NCBI GenBank assembly: GCA_041664585.1 | Contig: JBAYKL010000004.1 | Location: 19,775 to 83,774, forward strand | Reading direction: 5' to 3' | DNA: 64,000 nt | Source of the DNA: Minisyncoccota bacterium | GTDB lineage: Bacteria; Patescibacteriota; Minisyncoccia; Phycocordibacterales; GWA1-40-21 | Shown here: in pieces, positions 16,650 to 38,005 of the stretch | Layout: every line of letters begins with the position of its first letter | Numbering within the stretch: the first letter of the stretch is position 1 | Position numbers and translations under genes: made by a program | The notes under the pieces: generated by a model | What the model was told of the DNA's origin: nothing | What the model saw: only the letters and a program-made list of their open reading frames with translations | Databases searched by the model: none

Positions 16650-16656
16650 AGTAGAA

Positions 16657-18891
16657 ATGAAATTCAAACAATTTCTAATTTCTGCTGGTATTGTTCTAAT
16701 ATCCATTTTTGTCATTGTCGGTATTGTTTCTGCCACTCACAATCTATATTCTTCCAAACAAACATCAGAATCTACTTTCCACTCTCTAAATGATATATAC
16801 AATCTAATAATGTCAGGAACAGAGAAGGCAACTCCCGATAGCCTAACCTCCACATCTGTTTCTCCCACAGCAACCACCTCACATTCCATAGGAGAGATCT
16901 ACACCATATTAGCTAATATAAAGGTAAACAAAGCTACTTCTACATACAGCTCACTTACTCCAACATCTGCACCAGGAGGTACAGGTTATACCCTAGAAGA
17001 CATATGGAATTTAATAAACAACTCTACATATGCTGCAGAAGGTAATCATGATATTACAAAAGCAACTACTCCTTCTGCTTCTATGCATACTACCTCAGAC
17101 ATATATACATATTTAAATGATACATTTAAGGTAAATCTTGCATTGAATAAGGTAAGAAGTGGAGCATACTATTTTGGTAACTCAAACCCTGGTACCTTTG
17201 TCATAGCTAATCTCGGTGAATACTGTGAGGCTAATGATGAGTGTAATACAAACTACTGTGGGGATGATAGTTGGTATGGCTGGCAGACTGGGACTACGCA
17301 ATGTACTACAGGGGAAATCGGATCAGTTTGTAATAATGCGAATCAGTGTTCTACAAATATTTGTGGTTATGGGCAATGTTCTGATGGTGCTGTGGGGAGG
17401 GGGTGTGATAGTGATAGTCAGTGTACATTAGGGCATTGTGATACAGCGGTTACAGGTTCTTGCACAGATGGAAATATTGGTTCAGATTGTGACTCTAATG
17501 CAGATTGTTCTACAGGATTATATTGTGGGGATACACAATGGATGTATAGTTCACCAGCGTGTACCGACGGTTCCGCAGGTCAATACTGTGGAGGACCAGA
17601 TTCATGTGCTCCAGGGAATTATTGTAATTATAATGATTATACTTGTACTGCTACTGATGGGGAAATAGGGTCAGGGTGTGGACAGAATTCTGATTGCGGC
17701 TCTGGATATTGTGATCAGTATAATAGTTATACTTGTACTAACGGAGGAGTTGGAGTTGGTTGCAGTGCTGGTAATCAATGCTCCTCAGGGTATTGTAATA
17801 CTGATTTCAATGAATGTTCTACCGGACAAATAGGTGCACCTTGTGGAGCGACTGGAGACTGTATATCTACTTACTGTGGATATGATTTCAGTCAAGCTTC
17901 TTCTTTCTGTACTAACGGAGGTATTGGAGAAGGTTGTAGTTATAATGCAGCTTGTGTTTCTGGATATTGTGACGTCTTTAATTCCCAATGTTCTGATGGA
18001 AGTATAGGGTCTGGGTGTACGAATAATAATCAGTGCTCTTCAAACCTATGTAGTTCTGTGGTCAATGAATGTATTAGTGGAGATATTGGTTCTTCTTGTA
18101 CTGTTGGGCAGGAATGCGATTCAACCTATTGTGATACCTTTAATGGTATATGTAAGACTGATGGGGCTATTGGAAGTGCCTGCGGATTACATTCTGAATG
18201 TGATTCTGAATTCTGCTCAAGTAATGTTTGTACTGCAGCAACTCTAACATCTAGACTTTCCGCCTATTGGAATTTTAATGAAACTTCTGGAACAGCAGCT
18301 AGCGATTCTTCTGGGAATGGAAAGGTTGGAGTTCTTGTAAGCGGCGTATTAGTAAATCAAACTGGTAAGTTGGGGACAGGTTTCAGATTTGATGGGACAA
18401 ATGACGTCGTCACAGTAAACAACATTGACATTAAAGATTCCTCATTTACATTTTCTGTCTGGGTTGCGAATACAAAGGCTGGTAATAGCTCTCCATTTTC
18501 TATGGGCTCTTCTGGCACCACGAATGGTTATCTATGGATAAGAAAAGTTACTACTACTAATAAAGTGGGATTTGGTTTCCATAATTATGGAACTTATGTA
18601 AATAGTAATAATAGTATGAGTACTAATGGTACTTGGGAGCACTGGGTCTTTGTGTATAAGCTTGGAGTAGGTAAAAAAATATATAAGAACGGTGTTCTTG
18701 ATATAACTGATTCTAATACACAAGCATTCAAATACCCAAGTGGGCAATTAAGAATAGGACATTCTTTTGATGCTGGACAATATCTTGGTGGAACAATGGA
18801 CGAAATCGGATTATGGAACCGCGCACTTACTGCAGACGAAGTCACTCAACTCTATAATGGAGGTGCTGGACTTGGTTACTCATCTTTCTAA
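16657..18891 (+). CDS. Large secreted surface protein, paralog 1. Domain order: signal peptide, three S/T-rich approx 40-aa repeats, about 11 tandem 4-Cys repeats (C-x-DG-x-IGS-x-C...C-S-G-x-C), C-terminal LamG/ConA-like lectin domain.
   Basis: 744 aa; repeat periodicity read from the translation; LamG_3-like motifs (LSAYWNFNETSG...GLWNRALTADEV). Confidence 0.7.
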   Translation: MKFKQFLISAGIVLISIFVIVGIVSATHNLYSSKQTSESTFHSLNDIYNLIMSGTEKATPDSLTSTSVSPTATTSHSIGEIYTILANIKVNKATSTYSSLTPTSAPGGTGYTLEDIWNLINNSTYAAEGNHDITKATTPSASMHTTSDIYTYLNDTFKVNLALNKVRSGAYYFGNSNPGTFVIANLGEYCEANDECNTNYCGDDSWYGWQTGTTQCTTGEIGSVCNNANQCSTNICGYGQCSDGAVGRGCDSDSQCTLGHCDTAVTGSCTDGNIGSDCDSNADCSTGLYCGDTQWMYSSPACTDGSAGQYCGGPDSCAPGNYCNYNDYTCTATDGEIGSGCGQNSDCGSGYCDQYNSYTCTNGGVGVGCSAGNQCSSGYCNTDFNECSTGQIGAPCGATGDCISTYCGYDFSQASSFCTNGGIGEGCSYNAACVSGYCDVFNSQCSDGSIGSGCTNNNQCSSNLCSSVVNECISGDIGSSCTVGQECDSTYCDTFNGICKTDGAIGSACGLHSECDSEFCSSNVCTAATLTSRLSAYWNFNETSGTAASDSSGNGKVGVLVSGVLVNQTGKLGTGFRFDGTNDVVTVNNIDIKDSSFTFSVWVANTKAGNSSPFSMGSSGTTNGYLWIRKVTTTNKVGFGFHNYGTYVNSNNSMSTNGTWEHWVFVYKLGVGKKIYKNGVLDITDSNTQAFKYPSGQLRIGHSFDAGQYLGGTMDEIGLWNRALTADEVTQLYNGGAGLGYSSF

Positions 18892-18900
18892 AATAAACAA

Positions 18901-18928
18901 AAAACGGCCAGAAAATGGCCGTTTTTTC
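18901..18928 (+). terminator. Terminator aaaacggccagaaaatggccgtttttt.
   Basis: 7-bp stem plus T-run. Confidence 0.7.
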
Positions 18929-18954
18929 TTTGTAAAAAATGCTATAATTACTCC

Positions 18955-21330
18955 ATGGAAAAGAAAAAAACACTTGTACTGCTTGATGTTCATGCAATTG
19001 TTCATCGTGCATATCATGCACTTCCAGATTTTGCTACAAGTAGTGGAGAGCCAACAGGTGCACTATACGGACTTTCCACAATGCTATTAAAAATTATCTC
19101 TGATTTAAAACCGGATTATATTATTGCATGTTACGATTTACCAAAACCAACTTACAGACATGAAGCTTACAAAGAATATAAGGCGGGGAGAGCAAAGTCC
19201 GATGACGAACTTGTTTCTCAATTAAAAAAGTCTTACGAAATATTCAAGGCTTTTAATATTCCTGTATATTCCAAAGAAGGTTTTGAAGCAGATGATATGA
19301 TCGGAACTATAGTAGAGAATAATAAAAAAGAGAAAAATATAAATATAGTGATTGCTTCTGGAGACATGGATACTCTTCAGCTTGTAGAAGGGGACAAGGT
19401 GAGAGTATATACTTTGAAGAAGGGAATTAAAGATACAATTATTTATAACGAAGAAGCTGTAAAAGAAAGATTTGGTTTTGGTCCAGAACTCCTACCAGAT
19501 TACAAAGGCCTTCGTGGAGATCCGTCCGATAACATTATTGGTATAAAAGGGATTGGGGAAAAAACTGCCACAGATTTAATAATAAATTTTGGTTCCATAG
19601 AAAATATTTATAAAGCGATCAAGAAGGATAAGAATAAACTTTTAGAAGCCGGAATAAAAACAAGAATTATAGATTTACTTGTAGAAGGGGAGGAAGAAGC
19701 AAATTTTTCAAAAATGTTGGGGACAATAAGGCGTGATGCACCAATAGATTTTGCGCTACCAGAAAAAGAATGGAAAGAAGATATAAATATAGAAAACATA
19801 AGTAATTTGTGGTCATCTCTTGAATTCAGAACTCTTGGCGCAAGACTGAAAGATGTTTTGATAAATAAAATGAAAAAGGAAGGTGTAGTTGAAGAAGAAA
19901 AAATCAGTATAAAAGAAACCGATACTAACACTGAAGAAATAAAAGAACTTTCTATAATCCTTTGGCTTATAAATTCCAACATCACAACCCCTACGTTAGA
20001 AGATATTTTTAATTTCACTAGAACAAAATCTTTAGAAGACGCAAAAAAAGTTTTGTATGAAGAATTAGAAAAAAGAAATCTCGGAAAAGTATGGAACGAT
20101 ATAGAGAAACCTATTTTACCTATTGTTATCCAAATGCAAAATAAAGGCGTAAAGATTAATAAAGAAGAATTACAAAAACTTTCAGTAAAATATCATGAAA
20201 GCTTGGATAAATTGCAAAGCAAAATATGGGAATATGCCGGACAGGAGTTTAACGTAAACTCTCCTAAACAGCTTGGTGAAATTCTTTTTGTGAAGCTTGA
20301 ACTTAAGCCTAAGAATCAGAAAAAGACAGGCGCAGGGGCACTTTCTACGAAAGAATCAGAGCTTGAAAAGATGAGAGATATGCACCCCATAATCCCTTTA
20401 ATTTTTGAGTACAGAGAATTACAGAAGTTACTTTCTACCTACATAGATGTTATTCCTACACTTTTAGATGATAACAATAGACTTCATGCAAAATTCTTGC
20501 AGGCGGGAACCACCACAGGACGTATGGCTTCTTCAGAACCAAATTTGCAGAATATTCCAAATGGTAGTGAGCTTGGGAGGAATATAAGAAAAGCTTTTAT
20601 AACAGAGAAAGGTTATAAGCTAGTGGCTTTTGATTATTCTCAGGTTGAGCTTAGGATTGCAGCTTTTCTTTCAAAGGATAAAACACTGTTAGAAATCTTT
20701 AGAAAGGGAGAAGATGTACATACTGCTGTTGCAGCAAAAGTTTTTAATGTTTCTCTTGAAGATGTAGATAAAGAAATGAGAAGAAAAGCTAAGGTGATTA
20801 ACTTTGGAATCATATATGGTATGGGAGTGAATGCTTTGAAAACAAATCTTGGTACAAGTAGGGAAGAGGCTCAGCTTTTCTATAATGAATACTTTAGAAA
20901 TTTTGATGGTTTGGCTAAATATTTAGAGAATGTAAAGATTGATGCTGAGAGACTTGGATATACAGAAACTTTTTTTGGTAGAAGAAGATATTTTGAAGGA
21001 TTAAGATCTAAAGTTCCTTTTATTAAAGCGATGGCTGAAAGAATGGCGATAAATGCACCGATACAGGGAACAGAAGCAGATGTTGTGAAGATCGCTATGG
21101 CTAAAGTAAATGATTATTTAGAAAAGGAAAGGTTAAAAGAAAAAGTTTCTCTTATCCTCCAAGTACACGATGAACTTGTTTATGAAATAGAAGATAGTTT
21201 AGTAGAAAAAGTCGCACCGAAAATAAAAGAAATAATGGAGACGCTAGTTTCTCCAAAAGAAACAGAAGGCGTTGCTTTAAAGGTTGGCGTGTCAGTAGGG
21301 GATGATTGGAAGAGCATGAAGGGAATATAA
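18955..21330 (+). CDS. polA: DNA polymerase I (5'-3' exonuclease + polymerase; apparently lacking a functional 3'-5' exonuclease domain, Taq-like length).
   Basis: 791 aa; motif B RRKAKVINFGIIYG; motif C QVHDELVYE; extended -10 TGCTATAAT sits 6 nt before the ATG, so the mRNA is leaderless. Confidence 0.9.
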   Translation: MEKKKTLVLLDVHAIVHRAYHALPDFATSSGEPTGALYGLSTMLLKIISDLKPDYIIACYDLPKPTYRHEAYKEYKAGRAKSDDELVSQLKKSYEIFKAFNIPVYSKEGFEADDMIGTIVENNKKEKNINIVIASGDMDTLQLVEGDKVRVYTLKKGIKDTIIYNEEAVKERFGFGPELLPDYKGLRGDPSDNIIGIKGIGEKTATDLIINFGSIENIYKAIKKDKNKLLEAGIKTRIIDLLVEGEEEANFSKMLGTIRRDAPIDFALPEKEWKEDINIENISNLWSSLEFRTLGARLKDVLINKMKKEGVVEEEKISIKETDTNTEEIKELSIILWLINSNITTPTLEDIFNFTRTKSLEDAKKVLYEELEKRNLGKVWNDIEKPILPIVIQMQNKGVKINKEELQKLSVKYHESLDKLQSKIWEYAGQEFNVNSPKQLGEILFVKLELKPKNQKKTGAGALSTKESELEKMRDMHPIIPLIFEYRELQKLLSTYIDVIPTLLDDNNRLHAKFLQAGTTTGRMASSEPNLQNIPNGSELGRNIRKAFITEKGYKLVAFDYSQVELRIAAFLSKDKTLLEIFRKGEDVHTAVAAKVFNVSLEDVDKEMRRKAKVINFGIIYGMGVNALKTNLGTSREEAQLFYNEYFRNFDGLAKYLENVKIDAERLGYTETFFGRRRYFEGLRSKVPFIKAMAERMAINAPIQGTEADVVKIAMAKVNDYLEKERLKEKVSLILQVHDELVYEIEDSLVEKVAPKIKEIMETLVSPKETEGVALKVGVSVGDDWKSMKGI

Positions 21331-21359
21331 AAAGAGGTTCGCGAAGCGAACCTCTTTTT
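21330..21359. terminator. Bidirectional terminator aagaggttcgcgaagcgaacctcttttt between polA (+) and tig (-).
   Basis: 11-bp stem with A/T flanks; nearly identical to the hairpin at 62714. Confidence 0.75.
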
Positions 21360-21360
21360 G

Positions 21361-22419: not shown

Positions 22420-22488
22420 ATAAAATGCAGTTTATACGAAAAAGGGGAAAAATGCAAAAGGATGAACATTTCGTGTTCATCCTTTTGT

Positions 22489-22698
22489 TTATTGTATTGT
22501 TGATGTAGAAACTTCTTTTATAATCTCTCCTTCATTGACTGTTGCTGTCTGTCTTGCTGAATCTAACAAGGCCTGGAAACTTTTTTGTCTCTCGATACCT
22601 TTTTGATAGAAATAATAGGCTCCGGCTAAAAGAATAATAACAACTATAATTGCTCCAATCATCGTTCCTATGCTATTAGATCCTTTAGAGTTATCCAT
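22489..22698 (-). CDS. Small single-TM membrane protein (69 aa).
   Basis: Hydrophobic core GAIIVVIILLAGAYYFY; terminator downstream. Confidence 0.4.
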   Translation of the reverse strand: MDNSKGSNSIGTMIGAIIVVIILLAGAYYFYQKGIERQKSFQALLDSARQTATVNEGEIIKEVSTSTIQ

Positions 22699-22742
22699 AC
22701 TGAAATTGTATATTTTTTCTAAAAAAAAGCAAACAGAAATTA

Positions 22743-22768
22743 AAAAACCACCGAACGGTGGTTTTTTA
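22743..22768. terminator. Bidirectional terminator aaaaaaccaccgaacggtggtttttt, 3' of nusA.
   Basis: Read directly. Confidence 0.7.
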
Positions 22769-22770
22769 AT

Positions 22771-23976: not shown

Positions 23977-23995
23977 ATTAGTGTTTATTAACTTT

Positions 23996-24051: not shown

Positions 24052-24080
24052 TTGCTATTTTTTGTCAATCGTTTTATAAT
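24052..24080 (+). promoter_or_regulatory. Promoter TTGCTA-17-TATAAT; an ATG lies 6 nt downstream, so the mRNA is leaderless.
   Basis: -35 at 24052-24057, -10 at 24075-24080. Confidence 0.45.
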
Positions 24081-24086
24081 TTGTGC

Positions 24087-24551
24087 ATGAAAAACGCCAC
24101 CCATTTCGATTTTTATAAGAAAAAAAACTTTCTCGTATATTTTTCTTCTTTGATTGTTATATTAATTTTAATTACGATTGTTTATTTCTCCTATTTTCAT
24201 AAAAAGGCAGATGTTGCCCCTGTGTCGCAAATTCAGAGATCTCTTATAGATACAAGGTTCCTCGTTTTATATGGAGAAGTCTCTAAGATAGGAAAAGCTT
24301 TTGTAAATATTGAAATCAGAAAAGATTCTAAACTAACAGACTATGTATTTGATGATGCCGGTAATATTAAAGTAGTAGTAGGACCTAGTTTAATTATAAA
24401 AGGATTCGATGTTGATAAAAAAGTTTATAGAGATTTAAAGATCTCTGATATTAAAATAGGCGATTTTATTACTGTTTATATAGATAATGCAACTTCTTCT
24501 GGATATAAGGCGATGGGCATAAAAGTTTTTAGTGAAAATATTATCAAATAA
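24087..24551 (+). CDS. Hypothetical membrane-anchored protein (N-terminal TM, approx 110-aa extracytoplasmic domain) immediately upstream of the giant surface protein.
   Basis: ORF; TM helix LVYFSSLIVILILITIVYFSYF. Confidence 0.45.
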   Translation: MKNATHFDFYKKKNFLVYFSSLIVILILITIVYFSYFHKKADVAPVSQIQRSLIDTRFLVLYGEVSKIGKAFVNIEIRKDSKLTDYVFDDAGNIKVVVGPSLIIKGFDVDKKVYRDLKISDIKIGDFITVYIDNATSSGYKAMGIKVFSENIIK

Positions 24552-24553
24552 AT

Positions 24554-27500
24554 ATGAAATTAAGATCAAAATTAATTTTAATATCTCTTGTTTCGTTGTC
24601 TTTTTGTTTTGTTTCTTCTGTTTTTGCTGCCGGTTGTGGAAAGGAATATTCATCAGAAGGGGATTACTATTATCAGTGTGATGGAACTCAGGTTACACAA
24701 ACGGCTGTTGTAATGTTCGGAGATATTATAGATAATTTTACGAATTCATCGACTACGGCTTCTTGGAGGTTTTATGATGGTGTAAACAAAAGAGAAGCTT
24801 TTTATACAACGGTTTTACCGCCGTTAAACGTTAGTTTAGTCATCTCCTCTAGTAGAACCGACTATGATATATTTACCGCTGCTGGCTCGCCCACATTTCC
24901 TGTAAACATTACTTTAACTATTGCTTCTGGAACGGTGGTATCTTCTACTAGAAGTGATAGGGGAGCAATTTATGGTAGTCAAAATCTACCAGCGGGATCT
25001 ATTGTTTCTATAATAAATAACGGAGCTATTATTGGAAGAGGAGGAGACGGAGGTGGAGCTGCTGGTCCAAATTGGCTTACAAATGGTGTTGGTTCACAAA
25101 ACGGTGGATCTGCTATTTCGTTAGTTGCTAATTCTAGTATTGTCACAAATAATGGGAAAATTTATGGCGGAGGAGGCGGAGGTGGCTATTGTCCTAAGGG
25201 AGGTCCAATTGGTGTGTATTATCCTGGTGATCCTGTTTATGTTTGGGGAGGTGCTGGAGGCGGAGCAGGAGGTAGCTCTGGTGGTCACGGATCATGCGGT
25301 TATGCACAAGGTGGTACTTCTGGAATAAACGGTACTCCAGGTAATGGTATTACGTGTAGCGGTAAGGGTGGCGGTGCCGGAGGTTCTTATGGTTCTCCTG
25401 GGGTTGTAGCTACTTGTACGGCCGGTCAAGATTACTGGATGGGCCCAGCTGCCGGAGGTAACTCTATATTAACTAGTAATTTTGATTTATGTATTGATGG
25501 AAACTCTTCTAGTACTGTAAAAGGGGATATTAGTAGTGCTTATAATGTAAGTTGTCCTTTTACTAAAGCACCGCTTCCTACCGTTACAATTTCAGCTACT
25601 CCTAACCCAGTAGTTTATGGTAACTCTAGCGTCGTAACATGGTCTTCGACAAACACTGTGTCGTGCTCTGCGGTGGATGGATGGGCTACCTCTAGCTCAA
25701 TAAGCGGATCTGCAAATATTAATATCTTGAGATTGAATAAAAGTTTTACGATATCTTGTGTAACAAATAATGGAACTATTACTTATGCAACTACTACGGT
25801 ACAGGTAAGCCCCGCTCCACCTACGTCCCAGAGGATGATAAATTCTGGTCTTATCGGATACTGGCCCTTTGATGAAGCGTCTGGATCAAAAGCAGTAGAT
25901 TATTCTGTTAATGGTAATGATGGAAATATTCTCAATGGGGTTTCAATAAATCAGCCTGGTAAAATTGGAAGAGCTTATGGTTTTGATGGTGTTGATGATA
26001 TTGTTAACCTTGGCAATTTTGATTCATATCTTGTTGGTAAAGAAAATTTATCTTTTTCTGCTTGGATAAAAGGAGATACTTTTAATACTAATAAAACTAT
26101 TTTATCAAACACACTTGATGGTGCTGCACAGTTAGAATTTTATATTAACCCAACAAGTATATCTTTTTGTGACTATACCAATGGGGTGCCAAATGGTTGG
26201 TGTCCAGGTGTTTTTAATCAAAGTCTTAGTTTAAGTAGTTGGCATCTTCTAGTTGCTGTATTTCGTCCTGGCACGGTTGAACTTTTTGTTGATGGTGTGT
26301 CTGTCGGTAGTAAATCTGTATCTGGTGCAACAGCGAGACAGTCTGGTTCAAATGCCAAGAATCTTATAATTGGTGGGAGGTCTGTTGCTAGTTATATGAA
26401 TAAGTGGGACGGCATGATAGATGAGGTGGCTATTTGGGATAGGCCTCTTTCAAGCCAGGATGTTTTTGATTTGTATAATGGTGGTCAAGGTATGAGCTTA
26501 ATCAATTCTTGTCCTTCTGGGGAAGAATATATTTATACTGGTAGCTATGATGTTCCACCTTCAACATATGATATTCCTGATACTATGAATTGTGGATGTG
26601 GAGATGATTCAAATTCTTGTGGTTGTGGTGATTCTTACTCTTGCCCATGTGGTGATTCAAATAGTTGCCCTTGCGGGGATGATTCAATGTCTTGTGAGTG
26701 TGGAGACGATTCTTATTCTTGCAGTTGTGGAGATTATGGATGTGAAATCTGGGAAGGTTCATATGATTGTGCGTGTGGTAATGAAATTTATCTTCCAGAA
26801 GAATGGGGTTATTGTTGTGAAGACTTGGTGCCAGACACAATGTCTTGTGAGTGTGGGGACGATTCTTATTCTTGTGGATATTGGGGAGACGAGCCTTGCG
26901 GCGATGATTCCTATTCTTGTGCCTGTGGCGATGAATACTGGGAGCCATACGAATGTTTATGTAGTATGGAATATTATGAGCCTGATACTATGGATTGTTA
27001 TTGTGGAGATCAGGAGGTTTGTGTCGTTGATAACAATAATTGTTCTTGTGGAGACTCTTACTCTTGCGCGTGTGGTAACGATTCTAATTCTTGTCCGTGT
27101 GGCGGAGACCTAAATTCTTGTTTTTGTGGAGATGATCCTTACACTTGCGGTTGCGGAGATGAAACGATGTCTTGTCTTTGTGATAACGCTTATAGTACAT
27201 ATGTTCCAGGATGGACTGAATACACTGGACGTTGTGTCCCGACAGATACTTTAGAAACCTTTATTGTGTCCCCAAGTGAAGTTCTTCCTGACAATAAATT
27301 TAATTTAAGTTATCGTACAAGCAACTTCAACCCTGGGGATACTTGCGTTGCTTCTGGTGGTTATGGTTGGTCTGGAACCCTCAATACAAATCCGACTATA
27401 CAGATAGAGGTTGGACCAATACCGACAAGCAAGACTTTTAATTTGATTTGTACTAGGGCCTCAGATAGCAAAACCGCTTCCGATTCAAAAACTATTAATC

Positions 27501-27847
27501 TAATTACACAACAACCAAATCATCTTACTTATACGGAAGAGGATGGTGTGGTGTGTAGTGTTGAGCAAGCAGGTAGAAATGGAAAGATATATGTAAACAA
27601 AAATACCATTTGGACATTAAATTCCCCAGTGGATTTATTAAACTATTCTATATCTACAGAATGGTTTGGTGATGGTATTAATACAATAACGAACTCTACG
27701 AGTACGTCTAAAATTTATACAACCGTTGGTCTTAAAAAAATAGCAGCCACTACAACTGCGACTAAGATTGGAGGAACCACCTACTATCTTATTTGTTCTA
27801 CCTCTACAAATGTTATTTTAGGTAACGATCTTATAAAGGAGATTTAG
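24554..27847 (+). CDS. Giant secreted surface protein (1097 aa). Domain order: signal peptide, Gly-rich low-complexity region, LamG/ConA-like domain, array of Cys-rich C-x-C-G-D-(D/S)-S-x-S mini-repeats, Ig-like C-terminal region.
   Basis: Signal peptide MKLRSKLILISLVSLSFCFVSSVFA; LamG motifs (GYWPFDEASG...AIWDRPLSSQDV) shared with the 16657 and 35864 proteins. Confidence 0.7.
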   Translation: MKLRSKLILISLVSLSFCFVSSVFAAGCGKEYSSEGDYYYQCDGTQVTQTAVVMFGDIIDNFTNSSTTASWRFYDGVNKREAFYTTVLPPLNVSLVISSSRTDYDIFTAAGSPTFPVNITLTIASGTVVSSTRSDRGAIYGSQNLPAGSIVSIINNGAIIGRGGDGGGAAGPNWLTNGVGSQNGGSAISLVANSSIVTNNGKIYGGGGGGGYCPKGGPIGVYYPGDPVYVWGGAGGGAGGSSGGHGSCGYAQGGTSGINGTPGNGITCSGKGGGAGGSYGSPGVVATCTAGQDYWMGPAAGGNSILTSNFDLCIDGNSSSTVKGDISSAYNVSCPFTKAPLPTVTISATPNPVVYGNSSVVTWSSTNTVSCSAVDGWATSSSISGSANINILRLNKSFTISCVTNNGTITYATTTVQVSPAPPTSQRMINSGLIGYWPFDEASGSKAVDYSVNGNDGNILNGVSINQPGKIGRAYGFDGVDDIVNLGNFDSYLVGKENLSFSAWIKGDTFNTNKTILSNTLDGAAQLEFYINPTSISFCDYTNGVPNGWCPGVFNQSLSLSSWHLLVAVFRPGTVELFVDGVSVGSKSVSGATARQSGSNAKNLIIGGRSVASYMNKWDGMIDEVAIWDRPLSSQDVFDLYNGGQGMSLINSCPSGEEYIYTGSYDVPPSTYDIPDTMNCGCGDDSNSCGCGDSYSCPCGDSNSCPCGDDSMSCECGDDSYSCSCGDYGCEIWEGSYDCACGNEIYLPEEWGYCCEDLVPDTMSCECGDDSYSCGYWGDEPCGDDSYSCACGDEYWEPYECLCSMEYYEPDTMDCYCGDQEVCVVDNNNCSCGDSYSCACGNDSNSCPCGGDLNSCFCGDDPYTCGCGDETMSCLCDNAYSTYVPGWTEYTGRCVPTDTLETFIVSPSEVLPDNKFNLSYRTSNFNPGDTCVASGGYGWSGTLNTNPTIQIEVGPIPTSKTFNLICTRASDSKTASDSKTINLITQQPNHLTYTEEDGVVCSVEQAGRNGKIYVNKNTIWTLNSPVDLLNYSISTEWFGDGINTITNSTSTSKIYTTVGLKKIAATTTATKIGGTTYYLICSTSTNVILGNDLIKEI
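26583..27180 (+). repeat. Imperfect tandem DNA repeats with a 24/27-bp period (TGYnnnTGYGGnGAYkmnwmyTCT) encoding about 20 CxCGDDSxS units. They include a nested ~35-bp duplicate (26687-26722 and 26837-26876).
   Basis: Periodicity visible in both the nucleotide sequence and the translation. Confidence 0.7.
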
Positions 27848-27865
27848 TATGAATTATACAAAGGG

Positions 27866-27905
27866 TGGGTATAAGGAGTTTATCTTTTTATTATACTCCT
27901 AAATT
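27866..27905 (+). terminator. Hairpin aggagt-N14-actcct plus a T-rich tract after the giant gene.
   Basis: Read directly; weaker U-run. Confidence 0.4.
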
Positions 27906-27948
27906 CCTATTTCTTTATATTACGATAATGATATAATTATTTGTAATT

Positions 27949-29730
27949 ATGCAACTTGATAATAAACAAATCAAAGAATTTATTATAGATGCGGGGCTTG
28001 TGAGCCGAACAGAATATGATGAAATGGAAAAAGAGGCAGATGCTTTAGTCCATGGTTCTGGTCAATTCAACAAAAAGGATACAGTAGAAAAGCTCCTTGT
28101 TAGCAAGGGAAAGATTTCAGAGGATGATTTACGCAGAGCCCAAGCATATGTTTACGGTATTCCATTTGTAGATCTAAAAGGGCAGAAGATAGATTTTATG
28201 GTTCTTTCTCTTATACCAGAACCTATTGCTAGAAAAAACAATATTGTTGCATTTAGAAGAAATATTGATTCTCTTGAGGTTGCAATGTTAGATACAGATG
28301 ATCTTGCTTCAATTGAATTTATAAAGAAGAAAGTTGGGCTAAAGATTTCACCTCGTCTTACTGACACCGACTCTATTAAGAGTGCAATTCTACAATATCA
28401 AAAAAGTCTAAAAGCTGAATTTGGTGACTTAATACAAAAAGATGTTGCCGCTTTAAAGACTACTGACACGTCTGTGGTGGCGGGTGATTCTCCAAATGAC
28501 TCTCTCAAAAAACTTGCAGAAGATTTACCCGTTGTTCGTATTGTAGATACTCTTCTTAAACATGCTGTATTACAGAATGCTTCTGATATTCATATGGAAT
28601 GTATGGAGAATGAAATGCTTGTGAGATATAGGATTGATGGACTTTTGCATGATGCAATGATTCTTCCAAAAAATGCTTCAATGAGTATTACGGCTAGAAT
28701 AAAAGTTCTTGCTAGCTTAAAGCTGGATGAAAAGAGATTGCCACAAGATGGTAGATTCAAAATCGATGTAAATGGTGAGCCAGTTTCTTTCAGGGTCTCA
28801 ATTATTCCTACATATTTTGGAGAGAAAACGGTTATGAGGCTTTTGAGAGAGGGAGGCGGGGGCTACACTCTTGAGTCTATGGGTTTCCATGGAGAAACAT
28901 TAGAGAGAATATATGAAGCTACAAAACAGGCAAATGGCATGATCCTTACGACTGGTCCTACTGGATCTGGTAAAACAACAACCTTGTATTCCATACTAGA
29001 AATCCTCAATACTCCAGATGTAAATATTTCTACTATCGAAGACCCTATCGAATATCAAATGCCTAGAGTAAATCAAACCCAAGTAAAACCAGAGATTGGT
29101 TTTACATTCGCTAATGGTTTAAGATCTTTAGTTAGGCAAGATCCAGATATCATAATGGTTGGAGAAATCAGAGACACCGAAACGGCATCTCTTGCTGTAA
29201 ATGCAGCTCTTACTGGACACTTGGTTCTTTCAACTTTACACACCAATAGCGCTGCTGGTGCAGTACCTAGGCTTATAGATATGAAGATAGAGCCTTTTCT
29301 ACTTGTTTCTACAATAAATATAATAATGGCGCAAAGACTTGTAAGAAGACTAGGAAAAGTAAAGGAAAAATATTTGCTTTCTAAAACAGAACTTCAGGAA
29401 CTATCTAAAGTAGTAGATATGAATAGAGTCTTAGAATTTTTAAAAGCAGAAAAAGTTGTTGGAGAAAAGGATGATTGGAGTAAAATTCATTTCTATAAAC
29501 CAAAAGAATCAGAGGATGCAAAAGATGGTTTCTCTGGCAGAGTCGGAATACATGAAGCGCTTAGGATGACGGGGACTATAAAAGACTCGATTATGAAAGG
29601 AGCTACATCAGACGAAATAGACGCACAAGCTAAAAAAGAAGGCATGATCTCAATGTTTGAAGACGGTGTCTTCAAAGCTGCTTCTGGACTTACCACTCTT
29701 GAGGAAGTTTTGAGAGTGGTTTCTGAGTAA
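27949..29730 (+). CDS. pilB: Type IV pilus assembly ATPase PilB/GspE, paralog 2.
   Basis: 593 aa; Walker A GPTGSGKTTTLY; Asp/His boxes; upstream of pilC. Confidence 0.85.
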   Translation: MQLDNKQIKEFIIDAGLVSRTEYDEMEKEADALVHGSGQFNKKDTVEKLLVSKGKISEDDLRRAQAYVYGIPFVDLKGQKIDFMVLSLIPEPIARKNNIVAFRRNIDSLEVAMLDTDDLASIEFIKKKVGLKISPRLTDTDSIKSAILQYQKSLKAEFGDLIQKDVAALKTTDTSVVAGDSPNDSLKKLAEDLPVVRIVDTLLKHAVLQNASDIHMECMENEMLVRYRIDGLLHDAMILPKNASMSITARIKVLASLKLDEKRLPQDGRFKIDVNGEPVSFRVSIIPTYFGEKTVMRLLREGGGGYTLESMGFHGETLERIYEATKQANGMILTTGPTGSGKTTTLYSILEILNTPDVNISTIEDPIEYQMPRVNQTQVKPEIGFTFANGLRSLVRQDPDIIMVGEIRDTETASLAVNAALTGHLVLSTLHTNSAAGAVPRLIDMKIEPFLLVSTINIIMAQRLVRRLGKVKEKYLLSKTELQELSKVVDMNRVLEFLKAEKVVGEKDDWSKIHFYKPKESEDAKDGFSGRVGIHEALRMTGTIKDSIMKGATSDEIDAQAKKEGMISMFEDGVFKAASGLTTLEEVLRVVSE

Positions 29731-29741: not shown

Positions 29742-30953
29742 ATGCATTTTAAATTTAAAGCGGTAAAAAGTAGCGGAGAGAAATATGAAGGAGTGAGAGA
29801 ATCTCGCGATAAGTTTTCTTTATATGCAGAGATAAAAGCAGAAGGGGATACTTTAATTACAGCAAAAGAGATTTTTAAAAAAACTTCTAGTTTTTCAAAA
29901 ATTGATGGTTTTATAAATAGAGTTCCAATGCATCAGAGAATAATCTTTGCTAAGAATTTAGGCTCTATGTTAGATGCAGGTCTTTCTTTGGCCCGTGCTT
30001 TAGCTGTTCTCGAGAAGCAGGTAAAGAATGGAAAGCTAAAAAGTATAATTACTTCAATTTCTATTGATATCAAAACCGGTAGAACTCTAAGTGAAGCACT
30101 AAGACCTTATCCAGACACTTTTTCCCAACTTTTTATTTCCATGGTAAAAGCAGGAGAAGAAAGCGGAAAGCTTTCCGAATCTCTTATTATAGTAGCCGCA
30201 CAAATGGATGGTAATTATAAACTTAAGCAGAAGATAAAGGGAGCAATGATATATCCGGCTGTTATTATCTCCATCATGATTATTATTGGTGTTCTTATGC
30301 TCATCTTTGTCGTACCTAGCGTTACGGCTACATTTAAGGATTTAAAAATTCAACTTCCTTTTCTAACTAGAATTCTTATTGGCGCTAGTGACTTTTTGAA
30401 AAATAATATATTTATTTCTTTTATTGCCGTCATTGCCGTTTCGGTTGGTACATATTTATTATCAATTTCATCTAAGGGCAAAAGATTTTTGGATGGACTG
30501 TTTCTAAAAATGCCAGTGGTAGGGGATTTGGTAAGGGAAACTAATTCGGCTAGAACAGCCAGAACAATTTCATCTCTTCTTTCTTCTGGTGTGGCTTTTG
30601 CAGAGGCGATCTCTATAACTCAGGATGTTGTACAGAATTCTTTTTTCAAAGATATTCTTAAGGAAGCTCGTATAAAGGTTGAAAAAGGAGAAACGATTTC
30701 GAGTGTGTTTTTAAGTAAAACAAATATTTGCCCTATTTTTATAGGAGAAATGATGAGTGTTGGGGAAGAGACAGGAAGACTTCCGTCTATGCTTATGGAG
30801 GTTGCACTTTTTTATGAAAATTCAGTAGATCAAAAGACGAAAGATCTTTCTACTATAGTGGAGCCAGTACTTATGGTTATTATAGGCGTAGCCGTTGGAT
30901 TCTTTGCTCTTGCTATGATCACTCCAATATATTCTTTGATGGATACAATTTAG
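29742..30953 (+). CDS. pilC: Type IV pilus inner-membrane platform protein PilC (GspF family).
   Basis: 403 aa; duplicated GspF domains; 3 TM segments. Confidence 0.85.
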   Translation: MHFKFKAVKSSGEKYEGVRESRDKFSLYAEIKAEGDTLITAKEIFKKTSSFSKIDGFINRVPMHQRIIFAKNLGSMLDAGLSLARALAVLEKQVKNGKLKSIITSISIDIKTGRTLSEALRPYPDTFSQLFISMVKAGEESGKLSESLIIVAAQMDGNYKLKQKIKGAMIYPAVIISIMIIIGVLMLIFVVPSVTATFKDLKIQLPFLTRILIGASDFLKNNIFISFIAVIAVSVGTYLLSISSKGKRFLDGLFLKMPVVGDLVRETNSARTARTISSLLSSGVAFAEAISITQDVVQNSFFKDILKEARIKVEKGETISSVFLSKTNICPIFIGEMMSVGEETGRLPSMLMEVALFYENSVDQKTKDLSTIVEPVLMVIIGVAVGFFALAMITPIYSLMDTI

Positions 30954-30971
30954 AAGTGGCAAATTAATTTA

Positions 30972-31463
30972 ATGCAAAAGAAAAATCTTAAAAGAGGAAT
31001 ATTACTTGTTGAGGTTATCATATCTGTTTTTATTATTTCTGTTGTTGTGAGCGTGCTTATAACAGCAAGTAATTTGTATTTAACAGCTTCCTCTTCTGGT
31101 TTGAAATCTACAAAGGCAATGTACTTTGCTCAGGAGGGGATGGAGGCCGTTAGAATTATAAGAGACAAGTCTTGGCAGGACTTTCAGAGCCTTAATGAAG
31201 GAGAAGATTATTACTTGTATTTTTCAATATCTGCTTCAAGTACCTGGAATGCAACGACATCGGTTTTCTATAAAACTACAGGTGGTATAGATAGATGGTT
31301 TGTGATAAGCCCTGTGCGTCGTGCGTATACTAGAATTACAGAAGGTGAAGGAGAGGTTGATCTATATACAAAGAAAGTTGATGTTTTTGTTTCCTGGCAA
31401 GATAGGGAAAGGGTGATTACAAAAACATTATCAACCTATTTAACAAAAATAATTCCAGATTAA
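30972..31463 (+). CDS. Prepilin-type protein (class III signal: KRG / ILLVE with Glu+5).
   Basis: N-terminal motif KRGILLVEVIISVFII. Confidence 0.65.
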   Translation: MQKKNLKRGILLVEVIISVFIISVVVSVLITASNLYLTASSSGLKSTKAMYFAQEGMEAVRIIRDKSWQDFQSLNEGEDYYLYFSISASSTWNATTSVFYKTTGGIDRWFVISPVRRAYTRITEGEGEVDLYTKKVDVFVSWQDRERVITKTLSTYLTKIIPD

Positions 31464-31978
31464 TGAATAAAACATCATTTAAAAAAGGGTTTTCTTTTCC
31501 AGAAATATTGGTTTATATAGCCATCATGACCACTATCTTACTTATTGTCGTTAATATAGTTTTTTTTGTTTCAAAATCCATAAGACAATCATCCTCATAT
31601 AATAATATAAGAAACTCAGCAGTATTTGGTTTAGAGAAAATTAAAAAAGAGGTAATGTCTTCATATGGGATTGATTTAAATCAGAGCGTGTTCGATTCTT
31701 CAAATGGGGTTCTTGTTTTAAATTCAAAAGATGAGAATGATATTTCTAAAACGATCAAATTTTATTTAGACGACGGTTTGGTGAAGATGGACATTGACGG
31801 AGATTTTGCGAGCACAGTTACTTACAGTGACACGAGAGTTTTGAAACTATTTTTTGTACCAATAGACACTGTAAATTCCAAGGGTGTAAAAATAGAGATG
31901 GGTATTAGCGGGGAGGGTACCAATTTTTTGGTTGCCGAAGATTTCTATAGTACTGTTGTCCTAAGAAACTCATATTAA
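31463..31978 (+). CDS. Prepilin-type protein (KKG / FSFPE with Glu+5).
   Basis: N-terminal motif KKGFSFPEILVYIAIM; 1-nt overlap with the upstream gene. Confidence 0.65.
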   Translation: MNKTSFKKGFSFPEILVYIAIMTTILLIVVNIVFFVSKSIRQSSSYNNIRNSAVFGLEKIKKEVMSSYGIDLNQSVFDSSNGVLVLNSKDENDISKTIKFYLDDGLVKMDIDGDFASTVTYSDTRVLKLFFVPIDTVNSKGVKIEMGISGEGTNFLVAEDFYSTVVLRNSY

Positions 31979-31980
31979 TT

Positions 31981-32379
31981 ATGAATACTGTTATCAAAAG
32001 ACAAAATAATTTAAAGAGTGGACAGGTAATGATTTTGACCGCTATCTTTTTTGTTGTTTTTACATCTGGTATCTGTTTGGGTTTGATAGACCCAGTAGTA
32101 GAACAAATAAAAAATTCCAATTATTATTGGAATTTAAATGAAAGTTATTATTTAGTAGAAGCTGGAGTTGAGGATGTTGCTTATAGATTTAAAGGTAACG
32201 TAAATATGAATGGAGAAGAGACAACCTTGATAAATCAATCCGGAATTGTTACCGACATATCAGAGCAGGACGGTAATGGTATCACAGTTTCTGCATTGGG
32301 TGATGAAAGAGTAAGGACTGAACTAAAAAAGGGCATCGATGAACAACCCTTTGAGATATTAAATTGGAGAGAAATATAG
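31981..32379 (+). CDS. Minor pilin-like protein lacking Glu+5 (PilX-like N-terminus KSGQVMILTAIFFVV).
   Basis: Hydrophobic N-terminal helix after a G; operon context. Confidence 0.45.
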   Translation: MNTVIKRQNNLKSGQVMILTAIFFVVFTSGICLGLIDPVVEQIKNSNYYWNLNESYYLVEAGVEDVAYRFKGNVNMNGEETTLINQSGIVTDISEQDGNGITVSALGDERVRTELKKGIDEQPFEILNWREI

Positions 32380-32440
32380 TTATTTGAGAATAAGGCTATT
32401 TCTTCCAAAAAACACCATTTGGTGATAATATGTTTATTAT

Positions 32441-35052: not shown

Positions 35053-35053
35053 T

Positions 35054-35824
35054 ATGGAAATTAAATATATAGACATTCACTCCCACCTCGGTTTTGAAGA
35101 CTATGGTAATGATATAGGAGAAGTAATAAAAAGAATGCACGAGAATGGTGTAGCTACTATTACGATAGGTACTGGTTTAGAAAGCTCTAAGGAAGCCGTA
35201 AGAATCGCAGAAGAGAATGAAAATATTTGGGCATGTATTGGTGCTCATCCAGATGATAATTCAGACGAAAGTTTTGATGAGAACGAATATGAGAAGCTTG
35301 TAAAAAGTTCCAAAGTTGTAGCCATAGGGGAATGCGGTTTAGATTATTTTAGAATTAAACCAGAAGATGTAGAAATAAAAGAAAAACAGAAAGCAGAATT
35401 CATAAAACAAATAGAGTTTGCTATTAAATACAATAAACCTTTAATGTTACACATTAGAAATGCACATGATGATGCATATGAAATATTAAAGAAATATGAA
35501 GGAAGAGTAAGAGGAGACTTACATTTCTTCACTTCAAATATTACAAACGCGAAAAGATTTACAGATCTAGGTTTTACAATTTCTTTTCCAGGACTCATTA
35601 CCTACATGAGAGATTTTGATAAAATAATAAAAAGTATTTCGCTTGATAAGATCCACGCAGAGACAGATGCTCCTTTTGTTGCACCTGTTCCACACAGGGG
35701 AGAGAGGAACGAGCCTTCATATGTTATAGAAATGTATAAGAAAATAGCGGAAATTAGAGGAGAAGATTTTGATACAGTTAGGATTCATTTAATTGAAAAT
35801 GCTAAGAAATTGTTTGGGATATAA
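35054..35824 (+). CDS. tatD: TatD-family metal-dependent hydrolase (DNase).
   Basis: 256 aa; HSHLGF N-terminal His motif, conserved ECGLDY. Confidence 0.85.
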   Translation: MEIKYIDIHSHLGFEDYGNDIGEVIKRMHENGVATITIGTGLESSKEAVRIAEENENIWACIGAHPDDNSDESFDENEYEKLVKSSKVVAIGECGLDYFRIKPEDVEIKEKQKAEFIKQIEFAIKYNKPLMLHIRNAHDDAYEILKKYEGRVRGDLHFFTSNITNAKRFTDLGFTISFPGLITYMRDFDKIIKSISLDKIHAETDAPFVAPVPHRGERNEPSYVIEMYKKIAEIRGEDFDTVRIHLIENAKKLFGI

Positions 35825-35863
35825 GCATTGCTCCCATCTCTTCAGTACGCTATAATATCCCTA

Positions 35864-38005
35864 ATGACCAAGAAACTAACAACTCTTTCTATACTTTTAG
35901 TTACTCTAGTCTTAATAACCGGAATCACAGCTGCTACTCATGTTCTTATACCAAATAAACAAACTTCAGAATCTACCTTTCACTCCCTAAACGATATCTA
36001 CAATCTAATAATGTCAGGTACAACAAAAGATGTACCAAACTCTCCTGTATTTACAACAAATACTCCCACAGCAACCACCTCACACTCCATAGGAGAGATC
36101 TACACCATATTAGCTAATATAAAAGTAGACAAAGCTTCAAGCACTACAGGTTCACTTATTCCAACTGCTTCTGCATCAACAGACTACACTTTAGAAGATA
36201 TATGGAATTTAATAAATAACGGTACATATGCTACCAAAGGAGCACACCTCAGAGCTACTACTTCTAGTCCCGTTCCTACTATGCATACCACTTCAGAGAT
36301 CTATGACCACTTAAACACAACATTCAGAAACAATCTTTCATTAAGTAAAGTCAGAAGTGGCGCATACTATTTCGGGAACTCAAATCCTGGTACTTTTGTT
36401 ATGGCTAATCTTGATGAATACTGCGATGCTAATGATGAGTGTTCGACTGGGTGGTGTGGGGATGATAGTTGGTATGGCTGGCAGACTGGGACTACACAAT
36501 GTACTACAGGAGAAATCGGATCAGTTTGTAATAACGTAAATCAATGTTCTACAGGGTACTGTGGTTACGGACGATGTACCGATGGCTCTATAGGTAGTAT
36601 GTGTGATTCAAACAGTCAGTGCTCGACAGGGTTCTGTGATGTAAATGTCACTAGTACTTGTACTGATGGAAGTATAGGTTCAGGTTGTGGTTCCAACGCC
36701 GACTGCGCTACAGGATTGTATTGTGGAGACGTATACGGAAATTATGGTTACCCAACATGTACTGATGGTTCTGTAGGCCAATATTGTGGGCCAGATTCAT
36801 GTGCCCCAGGTAATTATTGTAACTATAACGATTATACTTGCGCTGCTACTGATGGAAACTTAGGTTCAAGCTGTGGACGACAATCCGATTGCGATGCTGG
36901 GTTGTATTGTAGTGAAGTAAGTTATACATGTACTGATGGCTCTGTTGGCGCAGCTTGTTACCAGGGTAATCAATGCTCTTCAGGGTATTGTAATACTGAC
37001 TTTAGTGAATGTACTACTGGTGCACTAGGAGATGCTTGTGGAGCTAATGGAGATTGTATCTCTGCTTATTGTGGATATGACGGAGTACAGAGTTTCTGTA
37101 CTGACGGAAGTATTGGTTCAGATTGTAATACTAATATTGCTTGCTCATCAAACCTTTGTAGTACAGTAACTGGCCAATGTATTAGTGGTGAGGTTGGTTC
37201 TACTTGTACTGTATCTCAAGAATGTACTTCTACTTATTGTGATACTTCAATTGGTGAGTGTAAGTTGAACGGAGAAGATGGGACTTCTTGTGGAGGAGCT
37301 TCTGAGTGTGACTCATATCTCTGCTCAAGTAATATTTGTACCATATATCCTTTGTTAGATTTTCTTGTAGCTTATTATCCTCTAGACGAGATATATAATA
37401 CTAACAAGACCCGCGATTTGTACGAAAGCTCATTAGATGGAACATTATATGGTAATACTTCAGTGTATAGTCCTGGTAAGGTTAATGGAGCGTTTACGTT
37501 TGATGGTAACGGAGATTACATAAATGTCCCAGGCGCTCAATTCAATTTAGATGATCAATTTACGATCTCTCTTTGGTACAATTCTTCAAAAGATACAACC
37601 GCTGCAAATACTTGGACTGGTATTGCTAGTAAGGGCGGTTACAGTAATAGCTGGAGACTTTTGGATCTCGGCAAACATTTCCAGTTACAATTGACCTTTG
37701 GTACAGACACAACTCCATCCAGAACAATTAATTCTCCATCTTGGACGATTGGTACCTGGCATCATTTGGTGGTTACTTATGATAGGTCTAATATTTACAC
37801 ATATTTTGATGGGGCTCTTGTTGGTAGTCCAATAGCAGAAACAAGGACTTTAAAAACTAGCGTCCAGTCTTTGCAAATTGGTTTTGCTCAATTCTCTAAC
37901 AAAGGAAACATAGATGAATTTGCTATATGGAAACGTGCACTTACCGTAAACGAAGTTGCCCAGCTTTATAATAATGGTAATGGCATGAGTATTATTACTC
38001 CATAG
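35864..38005 (+). CDS. Large secreted surface protein, paralog 2 of the 16657 gene (same S/T repeats, 4-Cys repeats and LamG domain). An alternative TTG start is at 35828.
   Basis: Long identical peptide stretches with paralog 1 (TSESTFHSLNDIYNLIMSGT, CGDDSWYGWQTGTTQCTTGEIGSVCNN); promoter TTGCTC-17-TATAAT at 35828-35856 lies 7 nt before ATG 35864. Confidence 0.7.
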   Translation: MTKKLTTLSILLVTLVLITGITAATHVLIPNKQTSESTFHSLNDIYNLIMSGTTKDVPNSPVFTTNTPTATTSHSIGEIYTILANIKVDKASSTTGSLIPTASASTDYTLEDIWNLINNGTYATKGAHLRATTSSPVPTMHTTSEIYDHLNTTFRNNLSLSKVRSGAYYFGNSNPGTFVMANLDEYCDANDECSTGWCGDDSWYGWQTGTTQCTTGEIGSVCNNVNQCSTGYCGYGRCTDGSIGSMCDSNSQCSTGFCDVNVTSTCTDGSIGSGCGSNADCATGLYCGDVYGNYGYPTCTDGSVGQYCGPDSCAPGNYCNYNDYTCAATDGNLGSSCGRQSDCDAGLYCSEVSYTCTDGSVGAACYQGNQCSSGYCNTDFSECTTGALGDACGANGDCISAYCGYDGVQSFCTDGSIGSDCNTNIACSSNLCSTVTGQCISGEVGSTCTVSQECTSTYCDTSIGECKLNGEDGTSCGGASECDSYLCSSNICTIYPLLDFLVAYYPLDEIYNTNKTRDLYESSLDGTLYGNTSVYSPGKVNGAFTFDGNGDYINVPGAQFNLDDQFTISLWYNSSKDTTAANTWTGIASKGGYSNSWRLLDLGKHFQLQLTFGTDTTPSRTINSPSWTIGTWHHLVVTYDRSNIYTYFDGALVGSPIAETRTLKTSVQSLQIGFAQFSNKGNIDEFAIWKRALTVNEVAQLYNNGNGMSIITP

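Follow-up and report, generated by a model that had tools for sequence, protein, structure and literature searches.

Candidate lectin-tipped adhesins of high variability, and a distinct, putatively exported mosaic protein heading type IV pilus genes, in a Candidatus Paceibacterota chromosome

To our knowledge, host recognition and attachment by uncultivated bacteria of the candidate phyla radiation (CPR), a group with reduced genomes, are largely unknown outside Saccharibacteria. A 64,000-nucleotide stretch of DNA (contig JBAYKL010000004.1; hereafter the window) raises the question of whether three of its genes, which encode putatively exported LamG-containing proteins and lie among type IV pilus (T4P) genes, serve such attachment, and whether they do so together. 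From the listing of open reading frames (ORFs) and their translations, supplemented by Pfam searches, Cys counts and AlphaFold2 models, we fixed the three proteins, all encoded on the + strand, as A (16657..18891; 744 amino acids, aa), B (24554..27847; 1097 aa) and C (35864..38005; 713 aa). A previous sequence-only reading had taken them for three paralogous giant proteins that make up one T4P-linked surface adhesin system in an organism with a reduced genome. The last point agrees with our data: because the nearest database relatives are metagenome-assembled genome (MAG) proteins of Candidatus Paceibacterota, we assign the window to the chromosome of this CPR lineage, of which it is an origin-proximal part. 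The lengths just given do not justify the word giant, and only A and C proved to be paralogs. The interpretation towards which we cautiously lean is that A and C are hypervariable lectin-tipped adhesins, with B a different, pilus-associated mosaic protein; the observation itself is real and well beyond chance.

By sequence comparison, A and C are true paralogs, with 52% identity in an end-to-end alignment over their full length. Identity reaches 71% in both the N-terminal base and the stalk and falls to 29% in the LamG domain. A recent gene conversion between the two was considered and rejected, as the genes share ~74% nucleotide identity over their first 1.3 kb and no long identical DNA stretches. 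For C, the mechanical ORF begins at a TTG codon at 35828, whereas translation from the ATG at 35864 yields an ordinary signal sequence. Both proteins open with a hydrophobic helix (aa 1-27) that ends in V-S-A before T in A and in T-A-A before T in C; this helix would serve as a signal anchor or else as a long signal peptide of the Sec type. The base that follows in A (16738..17154; aa 28-166) contains four S/T/P-rich repeats of ~34 aa, where three of ~40 aa had earlier been counted. In both proteins these repeats are spaced 33-35 aa apart (at aa 40, 74, 109 and 142) and carry the motif [ST]-x-[HY]-[ST]-[LIT]-x-[DE]-I-[YW]-x-[LIY]-[LI]. AlphaFold2 predicts a short helix in each repeat of A (aa 44-53, 78-86, 113-122 and 146-157), joined by S/T/P-rich linkers of low model confidence, and no relative of this helix-repeat region was found in Pfam, PHROGs or the PDB. 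The base leads into an array of four-Cys units, which in A (17212..18240; aa 186-528) accounts for all 48 Cys, situated between aa 190 and 525 in a strict register of four, and thus comprises 12 units; the 44 Cys of C correspond to 11 units (nucleotides 36410-37348; aa 183-495). Each unit follows the pattern C-[TS]-[DTN]-G-x-x-G-x-x-C-x5-C-x-S-G-x-C plus 4-14 variable residues, for a total of 25-33 aa. The array as such had been recognised before, as ~11 repeats of ~29 aa with a motif that we revise here.

A LamG/ConA-like jelly roll completes both proteins (A, 18241..18888, aa 529-744; C, aa 496-713). All three proteins pass the Pfam Laminin_G_3 model (PF13385; cutoff 27.6 bits) with 76 bits for A, 86 for C and 74.3 for B (E 1e-20 to 4e-24). 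The domain had been placed at the C-terminus, which holds for A and C; in B it is central. In the AlphaFold2 model of A, the region (aa 530-740) is all-beta and forms a two-sheet jelly roll that matches ConA-like domains of known structure (Foldseek against the PDB, E 4e-11 to 1e-9, probability 1.00). The best matches are domain 4 of AbnA, the lectin domain of trans-sialidase and the Hc-N domain of botulinum and tetanus toxins, all of them carbohydrate- or ganglioside-binding ConA-like domains. Structure prediction, which had been proposed as a check, thus returned both the jelly roll and a confidently modelled stalk.

That stalk is built of units whose family membership required intermediates to establish. 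Across the Cys array, the full-length AlphaFold2 model of A has a predicted local distance difference test score (pLDDT) of 80-88, and a separately modelled four-unit segment reaches a mean pLDDT of 94.9 with a predicted template modelling score of 0.80. The model shows a beta-bridge in every unit, with the first two Cys flanking a 3-10 turn and the last two borne on a beta-hairpin. When compared with PDB structures, the four-unit model gave no significant match to any solved structure, its weak best matches being colipase (a Dkk-type fold) and the N-terminal region of Dkk4; a sequence search of the PDB with the repeat profile returned Dkk1 and Dkk2 alone, at a non-significant E of ~3. Full-length A and C matched no repeat family in Pfam (E<=0.1) or NCBIfam, and a two-unit fragment of A scored 20 bits (E 9e-4) against Dickkopf_N, below the cutoff of 25. 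A word-indexed search with the two-unit profile had yielded one match from 37 candidates and was superseded by an exhaustive search, in which a profile of 43 two-unit segments was run against 1.84 billion cluster representatives. This recovered at least 1150 representatives at E<=1e-3, of which 333 reach E<=1e-10 and 27 reach E<=1e-30. Among 100 of these matches scanned with Pfam, most have no annotated domain over the repeats; Dickkopf_N was detected in seven (best E 3e-10), LamG_3 in four, and DUF7107 and S_layer_C in two each. The A2 repeat profile finds P0068 (E 5e-32) and P0058 (E 4e-39), of which the former exceeds the Dickkopf_N cutoff with 30.1 bits and the latter that of DUF7107 with 45.9 bits, in both cases on residues overlapping the profile match, and a fungal cluster mate of a top repeat match is named 'Dickkopf N-terminal cysteine-rich domain-containing protein'. 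Because such intermediate sequences match both our profile and the Pfam models on the same residues, we classify the repeat, at the sequence level, as a divergent and mostly un-annotated prokaryotic branch of the Dickkopf_N/DUF7107 small disulfide modules. The earlier impression that it resembles no named family therefore stands insofar as A and C fail every Pfam repeat model, and gives way to this remote affiliation. The long tandem array of this module in A and C is without a solved structural counterpart.

The same module recurs on proteins of another kind. Class III (prepilin-type) signal peptides are present in at least 12 of the 150 top repeat matches (~8%), including the bacterial prepilins P0016 (GFTLLE; Pfam N_methyl), P0017, P0060, P0084, P0110, P0113, P0131 and P0185, and, with signals of the archaeal type, P0020 and P0152 (both AQGTIEYLVI) and P0097. 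From these pilins and archaeal class III proteins it follows that the module is reused on surface filaments; judged by these signals, it has been mounted repeatedly on type IV filament subunits, A and C being no such case. Genuine type IV pilins whose entire extracellular part is made up of the four-Cys repeat occur in another CPR genome and an Elusimicrobia MAG, and the gene for P0016 (L003, 10001-11860) stands among housekeeping genes, outside any pil operon.

Comparison with related loci (given here by L numbers, as proteins are by P numbers) reveals that A occupies a sharply bounded variable slot. The arrangement tsaE, A, polA is kept in L002, L018 and L019 and partly in L001. In these genomes the protein sequences of TsaE, PolA, Tig, RuvB and NusA agree with those of the window at 92-98% identity and that of the second PilB (PilB2, discussed below) at 84-90%, against only 50-58% for the protein in the A slot. 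In a nucleotide alignment, the backbone shared by the window and L002 is 85-92% identical and the 5' half of A 73-76%; the alignment is lost over 17847-18853, which covers the distal stalk and the LamG domain, and resumes 40 nucleotides (nt) before the stop codon of A. A further sharp break in the same alignment spans 24094-27911, the region of B. Domain-wise comparison of four A-slot alleles (A of the window, P0002, P0004 and P0006) together with C identified LamG as the least conserved part in nine of the ten pairs; P0005, which is N-terminally truncated, was compared by whole-protein identity only. Stalk length also differs among the alleles, and their Cys totals range from 38 to 54 and are always even. 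Since the slot protein is 50-58% identical between flanks that are 92-98% identical, the case for a surface, interaction-facing role of A is strengthened.

B is organised differently. It resembles A and C in the LamG domain alone (29-30% identity; E 9e-20 and 3e-16), which leaves the earlier claim of three paralogs valid for A and C. Its signal peptide (24554..24637, read directly from the sequence) ends in A-A-G-C. The corresponding sites are F-A-A-G-C28 in B, Y-A-V-S-C in P0030 and A-A-A-S-C in P0031; the Cys is conserved and the -3 residue is atypical for a lipobox. The site could be either a lipobox or an AxA-type site with a conserved Cys, and B is possibly a lipoprotein. B carries a conserved GDYYYQCDG motif, followed by a glycine-rich domain (24908..25471; aa 119-306) resembling Gp38, a phage tail-fibre adhesin: Pfam GP38 (PF05268; cutoff 25) gives 26.5 bits for the isolated fragment and 22.7 for the full-length protein, and PHROG 2056 ('tail fiber protein; host specificity') matches at E 1.8e-7. 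A prophage origin of B, which these matches might bring to mind, was rejected on account of the neighbours, all housekeeping or pil genes, and of the slot being chromosomal in six genomes. An Ig-like domain separates the glycine-rich domain from LamG (25841..26503; aa 430-650). Next comes the different Cys-rich array that had already been noted in B (26510..27181; aa 653-876), with 17 CxC motifs, 18% Cys, 14% Asp and a 9-aa consensus, C-x-C-G-D-D-S-x-S, encoded in part by a degenerate 27-bp DNA tandem repeat; at this position the ortholog P0030 has a different Cys-rich array. Two Ig/PKD-like domains end the protein, the last of which (27521..27844; aa 990-1097), terminating in ILGNDLIKEI, is shared with otherwise unrelated large proteins. 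Gly_rich_2 and LamG are combined in many CPR and archaeal MAG proteins, and on its domain content B falls into this loose class. A small single-pass membrane protein is encoded 3 nt upstream of B (24081..24551, + strand), and a homolog with 71% identity lies upstream of the B ortholog in L015. A second B-like gene, with a GxYxYxCDG N-terminal motif, was observed at L007 7593-9681 (the same contig as L001); its C-x-C-G-D-D-S array shares 62% identity with the array of B, and the gene is not beside pilB and extends past the contig end.

The position of B is also a variable slot. The order nusA (- strand), one or more large exported proteins, then pilB, pilC, minor pilins and an AI-2E transporter, was recovered in the window, L002, L005, L006, L010 and L015, with the qualification that L005 starts inside the large protein, so that nusA itself is not seen there. 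Across these loci NusA is 79-97%, PilB 66-95% (90-95% in four of five) and PilC 82-92% identical to the window. The bodies of the slot proteins are mutually unrelated: the pair formed by B and P0030 of L015 (41% identity) has LamG, glycine-rich and CxC regions, the L005 protein Kelch and FN3 domains, and the L006 protein another Cys-rich array with FN3, while L010 encodes two proteins with internal membrane helices and L002 one. These last (L002 12386-15868; L010 1199-3448 and 3574-7524) have a signal peptide and an internal pair of hydrophobic helices, unlike B, which suggests two extracellular parts linked by a membrane hairpin. What the slot proteins have in common is the PKD-like C-terminal domain of ~100 aa, ending in ILG(N/G)D-I-x-EI. 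With the ending (V/M)ILG(N/G)D-I-x-EI, it was also seen on many otherwise unrelated large exported proteins (window 27521-27844; L002 and L005-L012). We considered this domain as a pilus-docking domain and dropped the idea, as it also ends proteins of L007, L009 and L011 that are not beside pilB. Given this distribution, it is a general feature of the lineage's surface proteins rather than a pilus-specific tag, and perhaps a sorting or anchoring domain peculiar to this lineage. The minor pilins evolve fast, at 35-62% identity against 91-95% for PilB; relative to L005 the three are 62%, 61% and 35% identical, with PilB at 93%.

The pil genes themselves were correctly located by the sequence-only reading. 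On the + strand, B is followed by pilB for the assembly ATPase (27949..29730; T2SSE and MshEN domains, T2SSE 392 bits), pilC for the platform protein (29742..30953; T2SSF in Pfam) and three prepilin-like ORFs that we read as minor pilins (30972..32379; N-termini KRG/ILLVE, KKG/FSFPE and KSG/QVMIL, the slash marking the putative cleavage site). A pattern scan for class III signals in all six frames found one in ORF 31463-31978 only, and ORF 30972 fits by eye. A second pilB-type ATPase gene, 36% identical to the first at the protein level, lies at 13408..15108 on the - strand, divergent from the region of A. The alleged interleaving with T4P genes is literally there, with most of the intervening genes being housekeeping ones (polA, tig, nusA, metG and tatD). 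The N-termini of A, B and C show neither a class III signal peptide nor an N_methyl motif, and none of the three is therefore a pilin. Nor did Pfam match a PilY1/PilC-type beta-propeller in B, whether searched whole or in pieces.

Consensus scans combined with direct reading provided the promoter and terminator calls. A is preceded by a promoter-like TTGCCA-17-TATAAT on the + strand (16621..16649), with its ATG 7 nt after the -10 box, and followed immediately by a terminator-like hairpin that is palindromic and has T-runs on either strand (18899..18927); by these signals it looks monocistronic. A TATAAT box on the + strand likewise stands 7 nt before the ATG of C (35851..35856), and no Shine-Dalgarno sequence is visible for A (16644-16659) or C (35851-35866). 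A perfect TATAAT exactly 7 nt before the ATG, with no visible Shine-Dalgarno sequence, suggests that both transcripts are leaderless. The best promoter-like site of the strand that carries B (24052-24080) precedes the ORF of the small membrane protein; the scan found no terminator-like site between B and pilB, and the first strong hairpin downstream of this promoter-like site is the bidirectional terminator-like one right after C (38018..38046; 11 pairs, 7 of them GC). B is probably part of a co-transcribed pilB-pilC-minor-pilin unit, and a role together with the pilus is plausible, though inferred.

From these features a division of labour can be proposed. A and C would be exported by Sec and either anchored by the N-terminal helix or released after AxA-type cleavage. 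Each would consist of a conserved base of four short helices in S/T/P-rich linkers, a rigid stalk of 11-12 small, divergent Dickkopf_N-like modules with two predicted disulfides each, and a variable LamG/ConA-like lectin domain at the distal end, which may recognise glycans or different ligands exposed by the cells of a partner or host; on this view the two are most likely adhesins or recognition proteins. Their specificity would shift through the replacement of alleles or through diversifying selection, with the LamG tip affected most. The two would be transcribed on their own and would not be pilus subunits. B, a mosaic of a Gp38-like glycine-rich module, Ig-like domains, LamG, the CxC array and the PKD-like C-terminus, would act with the pilus, for example as a non-pilin accessory protein or tip adhesin. 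Several observations weigh against parts of this scheme. Besides the N-terminal helix, nothing in A and C is recognisable as an anchor to wall or membrane, and LamG_3 is a generic fold present also in enzymes and toxins. Pressure from phages or predators could equally make any exposed protein hypervariable. The C-terminal domain that B shares with the other slot proteins also ends large proteins away from pilB. As to the pilus, the distant A-like genes for P0015 and P0012 are not near T4P genes, and because of this and the apparently monocistronic A, the nearness of A and C to T4P genes may simply reflect the compactness of the genome; any link between these two and the pilus is unproven and rests on their neighbourhood in close relatives. 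The proposed co-occurrence check accordingly splits, with the B slot beside pilB in six loci and distant A-like genes unlinked. Of the surface adhesin system first proposed, the export signals, lectin fold and predicted stalk are retained, with the hypervariability as added support, and the single system of three genes is not.

That single system would have A, B and C as physical T4P components, namely tip adhesins docked on minor pilins in the manner of PilY1, in one system with both pilB genes. Its attraction lies in gene order: B is directly upstream of pilB, pilC and the minor pilins in six loci, A lies 1.5 kb from the divergent pilB in the window, L001, L002 and L018, and no gene stands between C and the first strong terminator beyond the pil genes; Cys-repeat and LamG modules are, moreover, fused to genuine pilins elsewhere (PMC9934059). 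We nevertheless judge it decidedly unlikely, given the absence of class III signal peptides from all three proteins and of a PilY1/PilC-type domain in Pfam searches, the promoter-like site and terminator that belong to A, the AI-2E transporter, metG and tatD genes that separate C from the pilins, and the lack of T4P linkage of the distant A-like genes. An alternative that we regard as simply unlikely makes A and C glycan binders for the envelope or for nutrient capture, or parts of an S-layer-like coat, which vary under pressure from phages that use them as receptors. The structural matches of LamG include the carbohydrate-binding domain of an arabinanase (5hon, E 1e-10), a variable island in a conserved backbone is also typical of surface proteins under phage pressure, and S_layer_C does occur in the two repeat-family members mentioned above. 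A and C, however, contain no catalytic, transporter or S-layer domain in Pfam or NCBIfam, and a stalk-plus-tip design with divergence focused on the tip better fits a variable external ligand than the capture of a bulk polymer.

The Cys arrays could also bind metal instead of forming disulfides, above all the CxC array of B, and so serve extracellular metal sequestration or redox chemistry. The Cys and Asp content of that array and its 17 CxC motifs, with their metallothionein-like spacing, speak for this, and many CPR bacteria live without oxygen, a condition under which disulfides form less readily outside the cytoplasm. Structural disulfides fit what is seen in A and C, namely four invariant Cys in every unit, even totals and a compact module modelled at pLDDT 95; the related loci come from activated-sludge samples; and the replacement of the B array by other Cys-rich sequences in orthologs points to a spacer rather than a specific metal site. 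We consider this option very improbable. A bolder form of our own proposal, rather doubtful at this stage, would treat both slots, that of A between tsaE and polA and that of B between nusA and pilB, as host-range cassettes of Paceibacteria in which alleles of lectin-tipped adhesins are interchangeable and driven by recombination. The B-slot protein and the minor pilins, which evolve equally fast, would then form a pilus-tip complex that settles to which host cell the episymbiont attaches, and the array would be a widespread unnamed stalk module grafted time and again onto pilins in CPR, Elusimicrobia and DPANN-type archaea. Under the more restrained reading of A and C as lectin-tipped adhesins with B beside the pilus, the three proteins are concrete candidates for CPR host attachment, combining a lectin tip, a predicted stalk, tip-focused diversity and a member of the pil operon. 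The most useful leads are the hypervariable slots with their sharp bounds and the stalk model, which is of high confidence and lacks a solved structural counterpart. A large un-annotated set of prokaryotic Cys repeats (at least 1150 clusters) is furthermore tied to Dickkopf_N/DUF7107, and its reuse on pilins is documented.

Apart from A, B, C and the pil genes, the window consists of housekeeping genes, among them yidC, dnaA, dnaN, a penicillin-binding protein gene, ruvC, ruvB, tsaE, polA, tig, nusA, metG, tatD, tRNA synthetase genes and recA. The genes yidC (- strand), dnaA and dnaN cluster at 602-5124, cumulative GC skew climbs steadily from ~4 kb, and the start of the window is probably the replication origin. 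Two small ORFs for secreted Pro/His-rich proteins occupy 15181-16135; they probably start near 15252 and 15708. A perfect TTGACA-16-TATAAT promoter consensus stands before each ORF (15181-15208; 15628-15655) and a terminator-like hairpin after it (15584-15610; 16106-16135). Positions 15275-16118 do not align at all with L002, which elsewhere is 85-92% identical, and so constitute a third hypervariable island. Further downstream, an isoleucyl-tRNA synthetase-like protein of 1149 aa (51587-55036) contains a His_Phos_1 (histidine phosphatase) domain at aa 495-662, within the class I synthetase core, and a 640-aa protein with a DUF11 repeat (55666-57588; E 2e-7) is possibly a further surface protein.

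Placed beside known systems, the three proteins show partial likenesses at several levels. TafC, a Tat-fimbria subunit of Haloarcula hispanica (NCBIfam NF052521; PMC11821415), is weakly matched over the LamG region (E 3e-12 for A). Membership was rejected, with 46 bits for A, 42 for C and 22 for B, in the LamG region only, against an equivalog cutoff of 410; A, B and C lack a twin-arginine signal, and the likeness is confined to the domain level. With Dickkopf_N (PF04706) and DUF7107 (PF23416), the units of A and C share the spacing G-x-x-C-x5-C-x4-5-C-x(n)-C. They fall below the Pfam thresholds, however, have four Cys per ~28-aa unit (eight per pair) against ten in the animal domain, and are strung into long tandem arrays of 9-13, with no relation to Wnt signalling implied. 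B has the same Gly_rich_2/Gp38-like plus LamG combination as giant surface proteins of CPR and DPANN ('LamG domain-containing' or 'DUF2341 domain-containing'), for instance P0036, P0039-P0041 and P0045-P0047 of Patescibacteria and archaeal MAGs, in which PF21722 and PF13385 co-occur as in B. Like B, these are exported, have a ConA-like domain and carry no assigned function; B, in contrast, adds the C-x-C-G-D-D-S array, the PKD-like C-terminus and a hypervariable slot heading a pil operon. To the diderm tip adhesins PilY1/PilC1 we propose an analogy, B being a large, putatively Sec-exported non-pilin encoded with minor pilins, although it has no beta-propeller and lies upstream of pilB rather than within the minor-pilin cluster. 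Saccharibacteria bind their hosts by means of a large minor pilin and one of their two T4P systems (PMC11623550). The modular pilin PilC of Streptococcus sanguinis displays a lectin module of the ConA-like type at the tip of the pilus (PMC9934059). A, B and C differ from it in their Sec-type (or lipoprotein-type) signals, with which they cannot polymerise as pilins, and the stalk of A and C is a Cys-repeat array where that of PilC is a pilin plus an Ig module. The resemblance nonetheless extends to a ConA-like/LamG lectin at the distal end of a predicted extracellular appendage in a monoderm-type bacterium, with T4P genes adjacent, and genuine pilin N-termini fused to the Cys-repeat module of A and C occur in other organisms, as in P0016.

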